Shown here: one piece after another, positions 2,619 to 36,146 of the stretch
Numbering within the stretch: the stretch's first letter is position 1
How the letters are laid out: every line of letters begins with the position of its first letter
Source: Burkholderiales bacterium
GTDB taxonomy: Bacteria > Pseudomonadota > Gammaproteobacteria > Burkholderiales > Burkholderiaceae_E
Direction: 5' to 3'
NCBI GenBank assembly: GCA_020248665.1
Contig: JADCHE010000036.1
Coordinates: forward strand, 1,996 to 65,995
Length of the DNA: 64,000 bases
Program-made: the position numbers and the translations under genes
Notes under the pieces: generated by a model
The model's input: only the letters and a program-made list of their open reading frames with translations
Database searches by the model: none
What the model was told of the DNA's origin: nothing

Positions 2619-3026
2619 ATGATGATGCTGTCGAGCTTCGACGACCTGCTTCGCGCCGCACGCGCGCAGCCCGAGCGGCAGCGGCTGCTGCTCGTGTTCG
2701 CCGCGATCGGCCTGTCGGACGACGCCCCGCCCGAGCGGCGCGCGGCCTTCGAGTCGGGTCAGGGCGGCGAACTGACCCCGGTGATGTGCGTCGACAAGTC
2801 GCCCGGCGAGCTCGCGGACTTCGCGTCGCTCGCCGCGACCGCCGACTCGACCGGCCAGGACTGGGGCGTGGTGTTCGTCACGGCGATGTCCGGGCAGGGC
2901 GGCGCCGACCCCGACGCGACCGAGGTCGAAAGCGCGCTGCGACGGATGATCGATGCGATCGGCAACGGGCACCCCGGCCCCTGGGCCCCCTTCGACCGGA
3001 ACGGCCGGCCGCTTCGGCTCGCCTGA
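2619..3026 (+). CDS. conserved hypothetical protein (small, acidic)
   Basis: ATG is preceded by GGGAGGACGG. The composition is non-junk (MMMLSSFDDLLRAARAQPERQRLLLVFAAIGL...). I recognise no domain. Confidence 0.55.
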   Translation: MMMLSSFDDLLRAARAQPERQRLLLVFAAIGLSDDAPPERRAAFESGQGGELTPVMCVDKSPGELADFASLAATADSTGQDWGVVFVTAMSGQGGADPDATEVESALRRMIDAIGNGHPGPWAPFDRNGRPLRLA

Positions 3027-3136
3027 CGCCGCGCCTCCCGCAGGGCGTCGGCGCCGCCGCGGCGGGGACGAAGCGTCGCCGCGGCGCGACCGCCGCAGGC
3101 TCATCGGGCGAGCCGGCGGTGTGGCATCCTCGAGCG

Positions 3137-4513
3137 ATGACCGAGCGCCGCTATGCCTTCGTCGACCTGGAGACCTCCGGCGTGTCGCCGGCGGACGACC
3201 GCATCACCGAGGTCGGCATCGTGCTCGTCGACGGCGATGCGCTCGTCGAGGAGTGGTCTTCGCTGGTCGACCCGGGCGTGCCGATCCCGCCCGAGATCCA
3301 GGCGCTCACCGGCATCACCAACGAGATGGTGCGCGGCGCACCGCGCTTCGCCGACCTGATGCCAGAGGTCGCTGCGCGGCTCACGGGCCGAGTCTTCGTC
3401 GCGCACAACGCGCGCTTCGACTACGGTTTCCTGAAGGCCGAATTCCGCCGCGCCGGCGAGCGCTTCACCGCGGACGTGCTGTGCACCGTGCGCCTGTCGC
3501 GCCGGCTCTTCCCGCAGTACGGCTCGCACCGCCTCGACGCGCTGATCGAGCGCCATCGCCTGCCCGCCGCGGACCGGCACCGCGCGCTCGGCGATGCCCG
3601 CGTGATCCGTGCGTTCCTGCAGGCGCTCGCGCGCGACGCCGACCCCGACGAGACCGAACGCGCGGTGCGCGAGCTGCTGCGCCAGCCGGCCACGCCCCCG
3701 CACCTCGACGCGGCGCGCCTCGAGGCCCTGCCCGAGTCGCCCGGGGTCTACACCTTCGTCGGCGCGAGCGGCCAGCCGCTCTACGTCGGCAAGGCGCGCA
3801 ACCTGCGCGAGCGCGTGCGCGGCCACTTCTACGCCGACAGCCGCAACGCCAACGACGCGCGCATCGTCGCCGAAGTCCGCGACATCGAGGTGGAGGCCAC
3901 CGCCGGCGAGTTCGGCGCCCTTCTGCTCGAGATGCGGCGGATCAAGGGCTGCGCGCCGCTTCACAACGTCGCGCTGCGCCGCCGCGAGACCGTCTGCTTC
4001 CTGCGCGCGCAGGCGCCCGGCCGGCCGCCCCGGATCGTCCCGCTCGACGACCTCGCCGAACGCGACCCGTTGTCCGAACCCGAGCTCTACGGCCCGTTCG
4101 GCTCGCGCGCGAGCGCCCGCGCGGCACTGTCGGCGCTCGGGCGCGAGCACCGCTTGTGCGACCGCGGTCTCGGCCTCTGGGCGCGCGAGGGCGCCTGTTT
4201 CTCGCGCCAGGTGCGCCGCTGCGACGGGCTGTGCGCCGGCGAGGAACCCGCCGAGGCCCACCACGCCCGGCTGCGCGTCGCGCTCGAGCCGCTGCGCTTT
4301 CCGCGCTGGCCCTTCGACGGCCCGGTCGCGATGCACGAACGCGACCCCGAATCCGGCCGCAGCGACCGCCTGCTCTTCGATCGCTGGCGGGCACTCGGCC
4401 CCGACGGCCCCGCGCCCTTCGACCCCGACGTGTTCAAGCTGCTCCGGCGGCGCATGCAGCGCGCACCCGACGCGTTCGAGCCGCTCGCGCCCGGCGTGGC
4501 GCGCGCCGCCTGA
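3137..4513 (+). CDS. DnaQ-like 3'-5' exonuclease fused to a GIY-YIG (UvrC/Cho-like) nuclease domain
   Basis: N-terminus: FVDLETSGVSPADDRITEVG (Exo I), FVAHNARFDYGFL (Exo II), HRALGDARV (Exo III). Then GVYTFVGASGQPLYVGKARNLRERVRGHF (GIY-YIG). ATG at 3137 lies within long ORF 1508..4513. Confidence 0.85.
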   Translation: MTERRYAFVDLETSGVSPADDRITEVGIVLVDGDALVEEWSSLVDPGVPIPPEIQALTGITNEMVRGAPRFADLMPEVAARLTGRVFVAHNARFDYGFLKAEFRRAGERFTADVLCTVRLSRRLFPQYGSHRLDALIERHRLPAADRHRALGDARVIRAFLQALARDADPDETERAVRELLRQPATPPHLDAARLEALPESPGVYTFVGASGQPLYVGKARNLRERVRGHFYADSRNANDARIVAEVRDIEVEATAGEFGALLLEMRRIKGCAPLHNVALRRRETVCFLRAQAPGRPPRIVPLDDLAERDPLSEPELYGPFGSRASARAALSALGREHRLCDRGLGLWAREGACFSRQVRRCDGLCAGEEPAEAHHARLRVALEPLRFPRWPFDGPVAMHERDPESGRSDRLLFDRWRALGPDGPAPFDPDVFKLLRRRMQRAPDAFEPLAPGVARAA

Positions 4514-4565
4514 CGCTCCAGAGGCTCGCGCCGCGCATGCGCGGCACCATGAACGCCTCGCGCGC

Positions 4566-4596
4566 TTGCAGGCACTGTGAACGGGCGTGCTAGATT
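4566..4596 (+). promoter_or_regulatory. candidate sigma70 promoter of the ABC-transporter operon
   Basis: TTGCAG (4566-4571), 19 nt, TAGATT (4591-4596). The spacer is slightly long. If this promoter is real, the permease probably starts at TTG 4636 rather than ATG 4597. Confidence 0.3.
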
Positions 4597-5511
4597 ATGC
4601 GGCCGGAGACAAGGCCGACCTTACAAGAGACGAACTTGCAGTTCCTCCAACTGGTCATCAGCGGGGTCGCGCAGGGCTGCATCTATGGCCTCATCGCACT
4701 GGGGTTCGTGCTGATCTACAAGGCGACGGAGACCGTCAGCTTCGTGCAGGGCGACCTGATGATGCTCGGCGCGTTCGGCGGGCTCGTCGCGATGACGATG
4801 CTCGGCTTCCCGTTCTGGATAGCGGTGATCGCCTCGATCGCGGCCATGGGACTGTTCGGCCTCGTCGTCGAGCGGCTGGTGATCCGCCCGATCCTCGGCC
4901 AACCGCAGTTCACGATCGTGATGCTGACGATCGGCATCGGCTACATCGTCCGCGGCCTGGTCACGATGGTGCCCGGCATCGGCACGGACACGCACACGCT
5001 GCCGGTGCCCTACAAGGACGTGGTGCTGAAGGCCGGCGGGCTGGTCGTGTCGGTCGAGCAGGTGGTCGTGATCGCCGCGACCGCCGTGCTGTGCGCGCTG
5101 CTGTACGGCGTGTTCCGCTACTCGACGGTCGGCATCGCGATGCAGGCGTCCTCGCAGAACCAGCTGGCCGCGTACTACATGGGCATCCCGGTGCGCCGGC
5201 TGAACGGCCTCGTCTGGGCGCTCGCCGCGGCGGTCGCCGCGGTCGCCGGCCTGCTGCTCGCGCCGATCACCTTCGTGCACGTGAACATGGGCTTCATCGG
5301 CCTGAAAGCCTTCCCCGCCGCGGTCGTCGGCGGCTTCGGCAGCCTGCCCGGCGCGATCGTCGGCGGGCTGATCATCGGCGTCGTCGAATCGCTCGCGGGC
5401 TTCTACCTGCCCACCGGCTTCAAGGACATCGCGCCCTACATCGTCGTGCTGGCGATGCTCTGGTTCAAGCCGAACGGCCTGTTCGGCGAGAAGCTGCGCA
5501 AGAAGGTCTAG
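4597..5511 (+). CDS. branched-chain amino acid-type ABC transporter permease (LivH family)
   Basis: LQLVISGVAQGCIYGLIALGFVLIYKAT is a typical LivH N-terminus, and the protein is multi-helix. The start could instead be TTG 4636 (MQFLQLV...). Confidence 0.85.
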   Translation: MRPETRPTLQETNLQFLQLVISGVAQGCIYGLIALGFVLIYKATETVSFVQGDLMMLGAFGGLVAMTMLGFPFWIAVIASIAAMGLFGLVVERLVIRPILGQPQFTIVMLTIGIGYIVRGLVTMVPGIGTDTHTLPVPYKDVVLKAGGLVVSVEQVVVIAATAVLCALLYGVFRYSTVGIAMQASSQNQLAAYYMGIPVRRLNGLVWALAAAVAAVAGLLLAPITFVHVNMGFIGLKAFPAAVVGGFGSLPGAIVGGLIIGVVESLAGFYLPTGFKDIAPYIVVLAMLWFKPNGLFGEKLRKKV

Positions 5512-30441: not shown

Positions 30442-32244
30442 TCAGGTCTTGGGCAGCGTCACGCCGCGCTGGCCCTGGTACTTGCCGCCGCGGTCCTTGT
30501 AGGAGGTCTCGCAGACTTCGTCGGATTCGAAGAAGAGGACCTGCGCGCAGCCCTCGCCCGCGTAGATCTTCGCGGGCAGCGGCGTGGTGTTCGAGAACTC
30601 CAGGGTGACGTAGCCTTCCCACTCGGGCTCGAAGGGCGTTACGTTGCAAATTATCCCGCAGCGGGCGTACGTCGAATTGTGGACGATGAAGTCGTTCGCG
30701 ACGAAGTTGTGATCGCCCGGAACGGTCAGGTCGTACACCTCCTCCTCACCAGCGGGTTCGATCGATTCGACTACATCCCAAACCGGGCCGTGGGCGAGTG
30801 CGACGAGTTCTTCGCACGCGAGTGCCACGGCAACGTTGCGGAAGAGATGGAGCGGAACCGACTGGCGCTCGCTCGCCCTGCGCGTGCTGAAGCGCTGCAG
30901 GCGCTCGCCCGACTGCTGGAGCGCTGCGGCGAGCAGGCCCCACGCCGCCTGCGGCAGCGTGTCGAAGTTCGATTTCGGGCGAGTCTCGAGGTTGGCGATG
31001 AAGGGCAGCACGTCCTCTTCCAGGCGACGCTGCTTGATCGACCCGGGTACGAAACCGATTTCCCGCGCAAATCGCGCGATCTGGTCGCGCGCGGTGATCT
31101 GGACGCTGTACGCATCGGTTCCGATCGAGGTGATCTTGCTGCGAACCCGGGAAAAGATACCGAACCGCAGCAGCAGGTGCCGGACGTCTTCGACCAGTCT
31201 TCGTGACTTCGAGTAGTACTCGAGAAACGCCGACTGCTCGCTCCGGTAGAGTCCCCTGTCCCCCGCGAACAGTGACTGCAGGAAGCGACGCACCGCCGGT
31301 TTCGGCGCGGTGAACACCGCCTGCGGGACGAACTTCGCTTCCGCCCCGACGTCGATTCCGTACCCGTTGAGCCATCGGCTCGCCCGGTTCCTCTCCGGCA
31401 CGCCTCCCCGGCCTGCCTTGTTGACGAGGCGCCACCCGCAACGTCCGCGGAAGGTGACGGTACCCAGACCACCGGCTGTGACGCACTCGCGCAGCAGGTC
31501 GACGAGAACCGGATCCTCCGACGTGAAGGTCGGGCTGTGGCCGGCCGTACGGCACTGTCCTTCGGAGATCATCAATCCCAGCAGCGACGCTTCCCAATCG
31601 GGCAGCGGCGTGCTCCCGAACACGGGGATGTCGCGGGCCACGGCGATTCGATCGCCGGGCCGCAGGTCCGATAGCGCCGTCCAGCCTTGCAGTTGTCGGA
31701 AAGGATGGTTCGCGGTCGCCCGGATCGAGAGGCCCGCCCGCGTCCGCAACTCGAACACTGGCTTGCGCCCCTGCGGGATGAACGCCGACACCGGCGAAGC
31801 ACGCAAGCCCCAGCGGTGCATCGACAGGGTGGCCTGCGCGTCCACGAACTCAGCGATGGGCCGCAGCGCGCCCGTCTGCGCGTCGACGACACGGGTATCC
31901 CCCGTGACGCACTTGCCGAGGCAGATGGTCAGCACGCTGCGCGGAATGCGGAAGTACTCGACGGTCCGGGCCAGTGCGAACGAATTGGGCGGGATGATGC
32001 AGACGTCGCCCTTGAAATCGACGAACGACTTCTCGTCGAAGTTCTTCGGATCGACGATCGTCGAATTGATGTTGGTGAAGATCTTGAACTCGTCGGCGCA
32101 GCGGATGTCGTAACCGTAGCTCGACGTGCCGTACGAGACGACCTTGCGCCCATCGACCTCGCGCACCTGCCCCGGCTCGAACGGCTCGATCATGCCGTGC
32201 TGCTCGGCCATCCTGCGGATCCAGCGGTCGGACTTGATGCTCAT
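30442..32244 (-). CDS. dcd: dCTP deaminase precursor containing an intein (exteins 111 + 77 aa, intein 412 aa)
   Basis: N-extein: [22 protein letters not shown]...[33 protein letters not shown]...[13 protein letters not shown]-extein: [42 protein letters not shown]...[16 protein letters not shown]. Joined, they form a normal 188-aa proteobacterial Dcd. ATG at 32244; the upstream part of ORF 30442..33051 is junk. Confidence 0.93.
30676..31911 (-). mobile_element. intein with LAGLIDADG homing-endonuclease domain inserted in dcd
   Basis: Cys1 (TGC, plus-strand 31909-31911) begins [10 protein letters not shown]. Block B is [17 protein letters not shown]-like motifs are [11 protein letters not shown] and [13 protein letters not shown]. 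The C-terminus is [21 protein letters not shown] (Asn codon 30676-30678), followed by Ser+1 (30673-30675). Confidence 0.9.
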
Positions 32245-32484
32245 TCGGGGCTCGCGCGAAGGGAATCCGGAATTGTAGAACGTCCGGCCGAGCCGCCTTC
32301 CGGACGGCCCCGCGCACGACCGAGGCGCCCGGGCGCTGCGCAGCGCCCGCCCCTTGACGCACGCCCGCGGGAACGCCACCCTTCGACGCCCCCCGAGGGG
32401 CCGCGACCTATGAGCGGCGCTGCATAGGTGGCGACCGACCCGCGACGGGTCGGCCACAGCGCGACACGAACGAGGAGACGAAGG

Positions 32485-32952
32485 ATGAAGGTTGACCTGA
32501 ACTTGACGGTGAACGGCCGCGCCGTGTCCGTGAGCGTCGATCCGAGGACGCTGCTGGTGCAGCTGATCCGAGAGCAGCTGCAGCTGACCGGCACCCACGT
32601 GGGCTGCGACACCGCGCAGTGCGGCGCCTGCACCGTCCGGCTGGACGGCCGCGCGGTCAAGGCCTGCTCGATGCTCGCGGTGCAGGCCCAGGGCGGCACG
32701 CTCGAGACGATCGAGGGGCTCGCGGCCGCCGACGGCGGCATGCACCCGGTCCAGCAGGCGTTCAAGGAGTGCCACGGCCTGCAGTGCGGCTTCTGCACCC
32801 CCGGCATGGTGATGGCGACGGTGCAGCTGATCGCCGACCAGCCCAAGCCCACCGAGGCGCAGATCCGCGAGGCGCTCGAGGGCAACATCTGCCGGTGCAC
32901 CGGCTACCACAACATCGTCCGCGCGGTTCAGACCGCCGCGTCGGCCGCCTGA
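32485..32952 (+). CDS. (2Fe-2S)-binding small subunit of an aerobic-type Mo-hydroxylase (CoxS-like)
   Basis: [12 protein letters not shown] and QCGFCTPGM...CRCTGY cysteine motifs. ATG at 32485 is preceded by GGAGACGAAGG. Confidence 0.9.
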
Positions 32953-32965
32953 GGAGGACCTCCGC

Positions 32966-35323
<2,358 letters not shown>

Positions 35324-35342
35324 ACCGACAGGAGACGACACG

Positions 35343-36146
35343 ATGTACACCTTCGACTACCAGCGGCCCGCCGACGTGGCGGGCGCCGCGCGTGCGGGCT
35401 CGACCGAGGACGCGCGCTTCCTGGCCGGCGGCCAGAGCCTCGTGCAGGCGATGCGGATGCGCCTGTCGCAGCCGTCGGCACTCGTCGACCTGGGCGGCAT
35501 CGCCGGCCTGGCCGGCATCGAGGCCGGCGCGGGCACGATGAAGATCGGCGCGATGACCCGCCACTCGGCGGTCGCGCGCTCGGCCGAGGTCCTGCGGGCG
35601 ATCCCGGCGCTCGCCGCGCTCGCCGGCGGCATCGGCGACCCCATGGTGCGCAATGCCGGAACGATCGGCGGGTCGCTCGCGAACGCCGATCCCGCGGCCT
35701 GCTACCCTGCGGGCGTGCTCGGGCTCGGGGCGACGATCCGCACCGACCGGCGCGCGATCCCGGCCGACGACTTCTTCCTCGGGCTGTTCGAGACCGCGCT
35801 GCAGCCCGGCGAGCTGATCGTCTCGGTGGAGTTCCCGGTGCCCCGGCAGGCCGCATACCTCAAGTTCAAGCAGCCCGCGTCGCGCTTCGCGATCGTCGGC
35901 GTGTTCGTGTCGCACGGCTCGGCAGGCGTGCGCGTGGGTGTCACCGGCGCGAAGGCCTGCGCGTTCCGCTGGACGGCGGCCGAGCAGGCGCTGTCGGCCA
36001 AGGGGTTCGCGCCCGGCTCGATCGACGGCCTGTCGATCGACGCATCCGACATGAACGCGGACCTGCACGCGAGCGCGGAGTACCGCGCGTCGCTGGTGGC
36101 GACGCTGACGCGACGCGCGGTCGCGCAGGCCACCGCATCGGCATGA
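35343..36146 (+). CDS. FAD-binding medium subunit (CoxM-like)
   Basis: FLAGGQSLVQAMRMRL and GDPMVRNAGTIGGSLANADP are FAD_binding_5/CO_deh_flav_C patterns. ATG at 35343. Confidence 0.85.
   Translation: MYTFDYQRPADVAGAARAGSTEDARFLAGGQSLVQAMRMRLSQPSALVDLGGIAGLAGIEAGAGTMKIGAMTRHSAVARSAEVLRAIPALAALAGGIGDPMVRNAGTIGGSLANADPAACYPAGVLGLGATIRTDRRAIPADDFFLGLFETALQPGELIVSVEFPVPRQAAYLKFKQPASRFAIVGVFVSHGSAGVRVGVTGAKACAFRWTAAEQALSAKGFAPGSIDGLSIDASDMNADLHASAEYRASLVATLTRRAVAQATASA

Follow-up and report, generated by a model that had tools for sequence, protein, structure and literature searches.

A dCTP deaminase gene of a Burkholderiales bacterium with a predicted class-1 LAGLIDADG intein in its catalytic loop

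Inteins cluster in nucleotide-binding motifs (PMC4760082), and in a 2015 census dCTP deaminase (Dcd) stood outside the 15 commonest bacterial intein hosts. The intein of one such enzyme, gp069 of the cyanophage vB_AphaS-CL131, splices in E. coli (PMC6293099), and a passage of the same paper mentions earlier Dcd inteins in a proteobacterium and a Chloroflexi, for which it credits MacGregor et al 2013. In the present study, we describe the dcd gene in a stretch of 64,000 nucleotides from a Burkholderiales bacterium (assembly GCA_020248665.1, contig JADCHE010000036.1; the whole stretch is called the window here). Its product is interrupted by 412 residues, which we assign as a class-1 intein whose Hint splicing domain is divided by a LAGLIDADG homing-endonuclease domain with two motifs. 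A preliminary description of this DNA, made from the letters alone, took it for a possibly rare or new allele. This did not hold, as an identical protein is present in NCBI (MCA3178245.1, 'MAG: dCTP deaminase [Burkholderiales bacterium]', MAG standing for metagenome-assembled genome), 477 GTDB species encode a relative and Dcd inteins were already mentioned in PMC6293099. The dcd insertion is real and not new; it is an uncharacterised member in a host gene with inteins already recorded.

By sequence, the closest characterised relatives of the window intein are the DnaB inteins (Ssp, 1MI8; Npu, 4O1R; and the Mtu type of NCBIfam PRK07773). Positions 398-828 of PRK07773, a full-length DnaB intein model, gave 236 bits with the window intein, and the Hint halves matched 4O1R at E = 1e-20 and 1MI8 at E = 1e-19. 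The DnaB inteins have the same class-1 chemistry, the HN/S C-terminal junction (a slash marks a splice junction) and a LAGLIDADG-type insert, but they occupy the helicase H4 motif or the P-loop, whereas the window intein lies in the loop of a dUTPase-superfamily deaminase. They are also the next relatives outside Dcd; metagenomic examples at LRESG/C..HN/SIEQD and ARPSMGK/C..HN/T are 33-39% identical to the window intein, and at about 35% identity the Dcd intein is a separate lineage. The CL131 intein shares the enzyme family and the catalytic loop, but it sits five residues downstream at a second site (site b, IGKSTYAR/C...VKN/CGII; we call the position of the window intein site a), carries an HNH instead of a LAGLIDADG domain and uses Cys+1. 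Its homologues are the second inteins of some relatives of the window protein and not the window intein, and as a candidate for the same allele it was rejected for its site and its HNH domain. Among solved structures, the intein endonucleases TliVMA (7QSS), PI-PfuI (1DQ3), PI-TkoII (2CW7) and PI-SceI (1VDE/1LWS) have the architecture predicted here, a Hint domain with a pseudo-dimeric LAGLIDADG domain (TMq 0.50-0.71 and E = 5e-21 to 4e-10 in Foldseek searches with the AlphaFold (AF2) model of the window intein), but at 12-19% identity, in archaeal or yeast hosts and in VMA, ribonucleotide reductase (RNR) and PolB exteins. The bacterial class-1 RecA intein of Mycobacterium tuberculosis, PI-MtuI, was matched as well (N-terminal Hint E = 8e-11; Foldseek 30-34% identity over about 100 residues), yet it differs in host, site and Cys+1, and its solved structures cover the mini-intein splicing domain only.

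The assignment of the insert was examined with family models, motifs and a predicted fold. Scored in bits against curated cut-offs, Pfam Intein_splicing gave 74.9 (cut-off 35.8), Pfam LAGLIDADG_3 56.2 (22.5), TIGR01445 intein_Nterm 33.5 (24.5) and TIGR01443 intein_Cterm 38 (15.6), and the search with intein and LAGLIDADG models that had been proposed as a check was thereby positive throughout. Both Hint halves align to the DnaB mini-inteins 4O1R and 1MI8, which are known to splice and have been crystallised; block B (RATANH) as well as blocks F and G fall within these matches. The motifs picked out in the preliminary description (Cys1 in CVTGDTRVV, RATANHPF, both LAGLIDADG motifs, blocks F and G and Ser+1) all lie where it had placed them. 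The AF2 model was built on 12 family members and reached a mean predicted local distance difference test (pLDDT) score of 88 and a predicted TM-score (pTM) of 0.90. Foldseek searches with this model returned the full-length intein endonucleases as best matches (TliVMA 7QSS, TMq 0.71, then PI-PfuI, PI-TkoII and PI-SceI), followed by mini-inteins, and Hedgehog Hint structures were also matched; a Hint fold is therefore predicted for the insert. Since both intein halves and the LAGLIDADG domain exceed their cut-offs, the excision restores a colinear Dcd and the splicing residues are conserved, we consider the insert an intein. When a profile built from the family was run against six-frame open reading frames (ORFs) of the 64-kb window, no intein was found besides the one in dcd.

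The host protein is a canonical Dcd, as had been said from the sum of its exteins (111 + 77 = 188 residues). The joined exteins gave 163 bits with TIGR02274 dCTP_deam (cut-off 92.8), and the comparison with an intein-less Dcd, also proposed earlier, was gapless at the junction and ran end to end with the crystallised Burkholderia thailandensis enzyme 4DHK (E = 3e-116). In the alignment of the spliced protein, the loop LGK/STYARCG lies over DGR110/S111SLAR115LG of E. coli K-12 Dcd; LGKSTYAR is aligned to GRSSLAR, residues 109-115, and the conserved G-[KR]-S-[ST]-x-A-R loop is present, so that the insertion point had been named correctly as G-R110/S111-S-L-A-R115. In E. coli Dcd, Ser111, Arg115 and Glu138 are reportedly catalytic, as Johansson et al are said to have found in 2005 with the structure 1XS1. 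By this alignment the insert parts the Lys equivalent to Arg110 from the Ser equivalent to Ser111, within the catalytic and nucleotide-binding loop, and the Ser+1 splicing nucleophile is the catalytic-loop serine of Dcd itself. Such a placement fits the clustering of inteins in nucleotide-binding motifs noted above. The statement that the dUMP/dTTP supply 'depends' on splicing was too strong, since dcd is dispensable in E. coli and dUMP can be obtained by other routes.

The residues required for splicing are strongly conserved. We aligned the window protein with its 120 best database clusters (n = 121), which are 68-93% identical overall and all bear the insert. In this alignment Cys1, T66, H69, D394, H411 and Ser+1 were invariant (121/121) and N412 was present in 120/121, while the acidic residues of the two LAGLIDADG motifs, Glu117 and Asp218, were found in 119/121 and 121/121. 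The mean identity to the window sequence was 86-91% in the exteins, 70% in the N-terminal Hint half, 62% in the endonuclease domain and 73% in the C-terminal Hint half. Against L083, a syntenic relative on a 5.5-Mb contig with the same gene order as the window, dN/dS was 0-0.03 for the exteins, 0.09 for the intein and 0.109 for the endonuclease domain; the exteins and the intein are under strong purifying selection and are not decaying. As a separate observation, in a Chloroflexota MAG (DRKV01000463.1, locus L049, about 3001-3220) the site-a frame stops 72 codons into the intein, and this copy is either degenerating or affected by a frameshift in its assembly.

One position of the endonuclease domain deserves separate mention. 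LAGLIDADG motif 1 ends in E-G as in the family, and in motif 2 the conserved Gly is replaced (D-R), with Arg219 (codon AGG, 31255..31257) after Asp218; Gly stands there in 118/121 sequences and Arg in the window sequence alone of the 121. GDRG occurs in the window, in P0122 and P0125 and in several MAG proteins of NCBI that match the window protein exactly, and GDGG in the near-identical P0123 and P0126 and also in P0001. Because identical MAG proteins share GDRG while near-identical copies have GDGG, G219R is a real and recent polymorphism, as opposed to an error of sequencing. Perhaps as a recent disabling mutation, the change may impair endonuclease activity in the window copy. It lowers confidence in an active endonuclease of this copy, not in membership of the LAGLIDADG family by descent.

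The family is large. At least 120 database clusters carry related Dcd inteins, and JGI names relatives 'deoxycytidine triphosphate deaminase/intein/homing endonuclease'. When GTDB species, each represented by a single genome, were scanned with two peptides specific to the family, 477 species representatives encoded a relative; the best 80 of these 477 included Burkholderiales, Casimicrobiaceae, Usitatibacter, Steroidobacteraceae and two Chloroflexota, together with the cultured Chromatiaceae Allochromatium palmeri, A. warmingii, Chromatium okenii and Thiospirillum jenense. All readable junctions among the relatives read ...GK/C...HN/STYA.... When 1.84 billion representatives were searched exhaustively and without a profile, inteins about 37-50% identical to that of the window were found at the shared GK/S site in very different Dcd exteins, which shows that the site-a lineage is deep within Dcd. 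The same intein was absent among the matches listed from 50,697 phage records, none of which covers at least 80% of the query; in these records, phage Dcds match the exteins alone, and the inteins of phage terminases and helicases show 23-27% identity.

Empty sites are common. The 120 best relatives listed for the spliced exteins are 82-95% identical where an identity was reported (mostly 86-95%), and as all are 187-315 residues long, they are intein-less; they come from Burkholderiaceae, Hydrogenophaga, Methylibium, Comamonas, Paraburkholderia and B. pseudomallei. This list favours contiguous matches, thus it shows that empty sites are abundant and gives no frequency. The sporadic distribution raised as a check in the preliminary description was borne out, with abundant empty sites in the same order and the intein in several orders and two phyla. 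Over 68 precursors (67 from genomes and the window), the identities of intein and exteins were only weakly to moderately correlated (Spearman 0.42), a sign of weak co-inheritance. Besides, three Dcd proteins on ENA contigs shorter than 1.5 kb (P0281, P0282 and P0283) contain an internal partial duplication joined at a repeated 'TPFEP / EPFEP' and outscore a self match of full length. Two of them, P0281 and P0283, were among the top matches of the extein search; all three are most likely chimeras of metagenome assembly and not biology.

The intein DNA had been described as less GC-rich than its host, on counts of 35/60 G+C within the intein and 48/60 elsewhere. The counts were exact, but the comparison failed: the exteins (60.7% and 64.9%) are less GC-rich than the intein (66.3%), in a window of 70.7% overall. 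Overall GC was dropped as a sign of foreign origin, and we used the GC of third codon positions (GC3) and of four-fold degenerate sites (GC4) instead. The real compositional signal lies at third codon positions, where the intein has a GC3 of 0.82, against 0.92-0.93 for the exteins and 0.97-0.985 for leuA, eamA and coxL.

The comparison with L083 was the most telling, and it revealed an island of divergence that includes the intein and the extein DNA next to it (Table 1). The Nei-Gojobori dS was 0.68 for the intein and 0.13 for leuA and eamA, and the silent-site divergence of the intein and its flanks is about four times that of the neighbouring genes. At four-fold sites, Fisher tests gave p = 1e-22 for the intein and p = 2e-6 for the pooled proximal exteins, both against leuA plus eamA, and p = 1.4e-4 for the proximal against the distal N-extein. 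The extein tracts 30540..30675 and 31912..31980 have the low GC4 and the high silent divergence of the intein, and their edges are sharp. The trough recurs against a second relative, L001 (0.90-0.95 in the flanks and 0.60-0.76 in the intein). With lengths of about 135 and 70 nt, the two tracts look like co-conversion tracts. We take the island for a recombination or co-conversion tract, which is indirect evidence of a transfer separate from the flanking genome. In our reading, the intein and the short extein tracts came from a donor of lower GC3 by homologous repair, as in homing with co-conversion, and the two related genomes would carry differently derived intein copies.

Table 1. Features of the dcd locus in the window, and divergence from the syntenic relative L083
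Feature	Position	Strand	Basis or value
dcd precursor ORF (N-extein, intein, C-extein)	30442..32244	minus	600 aa + stop; Pfam DCD, Intein_splicing, LAGLIDADG_3; identical to NCBI MCA3178245.1
N-extein, 111 aa, C-terminal end ...TICLGK	31912..32244	minus	Lys-1 aligned to E. coli Arg110
Intein, 412 aa, about 45.5 kDa	30676..31911	minus	Exactly 412 codons, CVTGDTRVV through FIVHN
C-extein, 77 aa, N-terminal start STYARCG	30445..30675	minus	Ser+1 (30673..30675) aligned to E. coli Ser111, Arg at +5 to Arg115
Predicted Hint splicing domain, N-terminal half, residues 1-104	31600..31911	minus	TIGR01445; aligned to DnaB mini-inteins 4O1R, 1MI8
Block A Cys1	31909..31911	minus	Invariant in 121 sequences
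Block B T66-A-N-H69	31705..31716	minus	T66, H69 invariant in 121; aligned to DnaB intein block B
Predicted LAGLIDADG homing-endonuclease domain, residues 105-369	30805..31599	minus	Pfam LAGLIDADG_3, AF2 model, Foldseek
LAGLIDADG motif 1 LLGLMISEG, acidic Glu117	31558..31584	minus	Glu in 119/121, Asp in 1; model helix 105-115 just before
LAGLIDADG motif 2 FLQSLFAGD218RG, acidic Asp218	31252..31284	minus	Asp218 in 121/121; model helix 204-214 just before
Predicted Hint domain, C-terminal half, residues 370-412	30676..30804	minus	TIGR01443; aligned to DnaB inteins
Blocks F and G	30676..30738	minus	End with His411-Asn412 at 30676..30681, then Ser+1
Divergence island vs L083: intein plus adjoining C-extein (about 135 nt) and N-extein (about 70 nt)	30540..31980		83-85% identity inside, 95-98% outside
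Four-fold sites vs L083, intein			Divergence 0.449, GC4 0.78
Four-fold sites vs L083, N-extein, 23 proximal codons			Divergence 0.615, GC4 0.88
Four-fold sites vs L083, C-extein, 45 proximal codons			Divergence 0.348, GC4 0.80
Four-fold sites vs L083, distal exteins			Divergence 0.06-0.12, GC4 0.99-1.00
Four-fold sites vs L083, leuA			Divergence 0.107, GC4 0.99
Four-fold sites vs L083, eamA			Divergence 0.121, GC4 0.98

Overall, the best explanation of these results is a dcd gene with a canonical class-1 intein at the equivalent of Arg110/Ser111, whose family behaves as a homing element, and we give it a probability of roughly 0.88. Several points weigh against it. The Arg directly after the catalytic Asp, at a position so widely occupied by Gly, makes endonuclease activity of the window copy doubtful; the four-fold sites of the proximal exteins are few (13 and 23), and the proximal C-extein alone did not differ significantly from the distal one (Fisher p = 0.14); changes between weak and strong base pairs (W/S) make up 59 of the 101 four-fold differences within the intein, and independent amelioration of a lower-GC insert could be partly behind the raised silent divergence; and in the literature we found no experimental report for any site-a LAGLIDADG Dcd intein, the CL131 intein at site b being the only tested one. 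A rival account takes the intein for a fixed, vertically inherited passenger with an endonuclease dead at least in the window copy, and the island for a product of faster evolution and GC amelioration of an old foreign insert instead of recent homing or recombination. In its favour, G219R is confined to the window sequence and the identical MAG copies, W/S changes dominate, and the positive correlation of intein and extein identities makes the history partly vertical. We consider this account unlikely. The dN/dS of the endonuclease domain (0.11 after rounding) is far from neutral and both acidic residues are conserved across the 121 clusters. Furthermore, a faster evolution of the intein does not predict that divergence and low GC4 reach 70-135 nt beyond the intein, into extein DNA that is otherwise very conserved, and end abruptly, and G-to-C plus C-to-G changes taken alone are also higher in the intein (37/225) than in leuA (27/289).

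The missing splicing report for the window allele would also agree with a splicing-dead remnant, or with a non-splicing Hint domain of the bacterial intein-like (BIL) type, which would leave the gene inactivated or its product permanently fused. This is barely plausible for a frame that is intact over 1800 nt, in which the nucleophiles and assisting residues are all present and conserved as given above, purifying selection on the exteins is very strong and the insert divides the residues equivalent to Arg110 and Ser111 of the E. coli catalytic loop. A more elaborate proposal is that the intein was recruited to serve as a conditional switch, such as a redox switch, in which an extein Cys at -4 traps Cys1 in a disulfide and gates Dcd and the dUTP/dTTP supply. 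The sequence C-L-G-K-C does place such a Cys four residues ahead of Cys1, and inteins, which cluster in nucleotide-binding sites, were proposed generally to have a regulatory role (PMC4760082). However, Cys-4 is also present in intein-less alleles (TVCVGK in P0285, TVCLGK in 4DHK) and is missing from many more divergent intein-bearing Dcds; hence there is no sign of co-evolution between Cys-4 and the intein, and we regard the switch as improbable. In its wider form, in which the site-a intein would be a conditional post-translational gate on dCTP deamination, acting by the Cys(-4)-Cys1 disulfide or by nucleotide binding to the split loop, the idea is a long shot.

For the preferred reading, a canonical homing intein, the following course is proposed. 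The 66.8-kDa precursor would be translated and would remain inactive before splicing, because its catalytic loop is split. An N-S acyl shift at Cys1 would form a thioester, which would be attacked by Ser+1, the catalytic-loop serine of Dcd, and cyclisation of Asn412, assisted by His411, would release a 21.3-kDa Dcd with the loop LGK-STYAR restored and a 45.5-kDa intein (these are computed masses). The endonuclease of the family would cut intein-less dcd in the region of the GGCAAG/TCGACG junction, ...CTGACCATCTGCCTCGGCAAG/TCGACGTACGCCCGCTGCGGG..., and repair of the break would copy the intein with short flanking extein tracts into the empty allele. In the window copy, G219R beside Asp218 may have weakened this activity.

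Some relatives of the window protein carry two inteins in the order GK/intein-a/STYAR/intein-b/CGII (P0043, P0064, P0069, P0080, P0094, P0096, P0113 and P0132; loci L015, L017, L021, L024, L029 and L033, about 3001-4800), and the two bracket the pentapeptide aligned to E. coli Ser111-Arg115. The site-b inteins are mini-inteins of 191-196 residues or longer forms of 317-376 residues, and in the window site b is empty (30658..30660, the Cys codon of ARCG). In addition to its site-a intein, P0135 (945 aa) has a LAGLIDADG-type intein at NVTPFEP/CYSADT...VWSGN/CWRGY (residues about 560-890). Together with sites a and b, this gives Dcd at least three intein sites, each no more than about 25 residues away from the catalytic loop. 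We also noted inteins 30-42% identical to that of the window whose insertion point immediately follows the Lys of a Walker-A GK[ST] motif, in P0141, P0151, P0155, P0196 (DnaB), P0184, P0188 and P0169; their junctions ARPSMGK/C..HN/T, TTGVGK/C..HN/T and SPGTGK/C..HN/S are locally like LGK/ST of Dcd. This likeness suggests that the Dcd site may have arisen by ectopic invasion from a look-alike P-loop GK/[ST] site. Inteins of the P-loop GK/ site (33-37%) are no closer to the window intein than DnaB inteins of the LRESG/ site (34-39%).

The coordinates of the ORF and of its 412-residue insert given in the preliminary description proved exact on translation, which runs in an uninterrupted frame across 1800 nt of the precursor. 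The mechanical ORF list extends this frame to 869 residues, up to 33051; this is a mere upstream open frame in DNA of about 70% GC, and as the homologues all begin with MSIKSD, it is not the real start of dcd. Neither the extension (32245..33051, minus strand) nor an 862-residue frame antisense to the CoxL-like gene (32762..35350, minus strand) has homology support; long frames of this kind are typical artefacts where the GC content is 70%, and neither is a gene. By their translations, dcd is followed downstream by an EamA-type transporter gene and by leuA, while the upstream side holds a CoxS/CoxL-type molybdo-hydroxylase cluster on the opposite strand; these identities are backed by Pfam calls on the syntenic genome, which is 95-98% identical. 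The same gene is annotated inconsistently in public MAGs, either as a 600-residue 'dCTP deaminase' or as a 497-residue 'LAGLIDADG family homing endonuclease'. The 497-residue calls (30442..31935; P0122, P0125; MFN8837888.1, MFO0234381.1, MFO0459122.1) use an internal GTG, where VLTICLGK is read as M..., and lose the N-extein. This start is internal and wrong, and the proper annotation of the locus is an intein-containing dcd.

The interest of this family is modest and mainly for specialists, as it lies in the use of a catalytic serine as Ser+1, the large family size and the apparent co-conversion tract, and no new kind of system is involved. It is a well-populated case, with no experiments reported, for the rule that inteins occupy nucleotide-binding or catalytic loops of enzymes of DNA and nucleotide metabolism, and it might supply new Ser+1 splicing domains or meganuclease scaffolds. 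If the conditional gate were true, splicing would tune the supply of dUTP/dTTP precursors in these bacteria. In the more modest version, the site-a family would be an actively homing bacterial intein, the spread of which may be traced in natural populations of Burkholderiales and Gammaproteobacteria. With hundreds of genomes, an endonuclease under purifying selection, abundant empty sites and a tract that resembles co-conversion, it is suggested that this family could serve as a reasonable natural system for bacterial intein homing.

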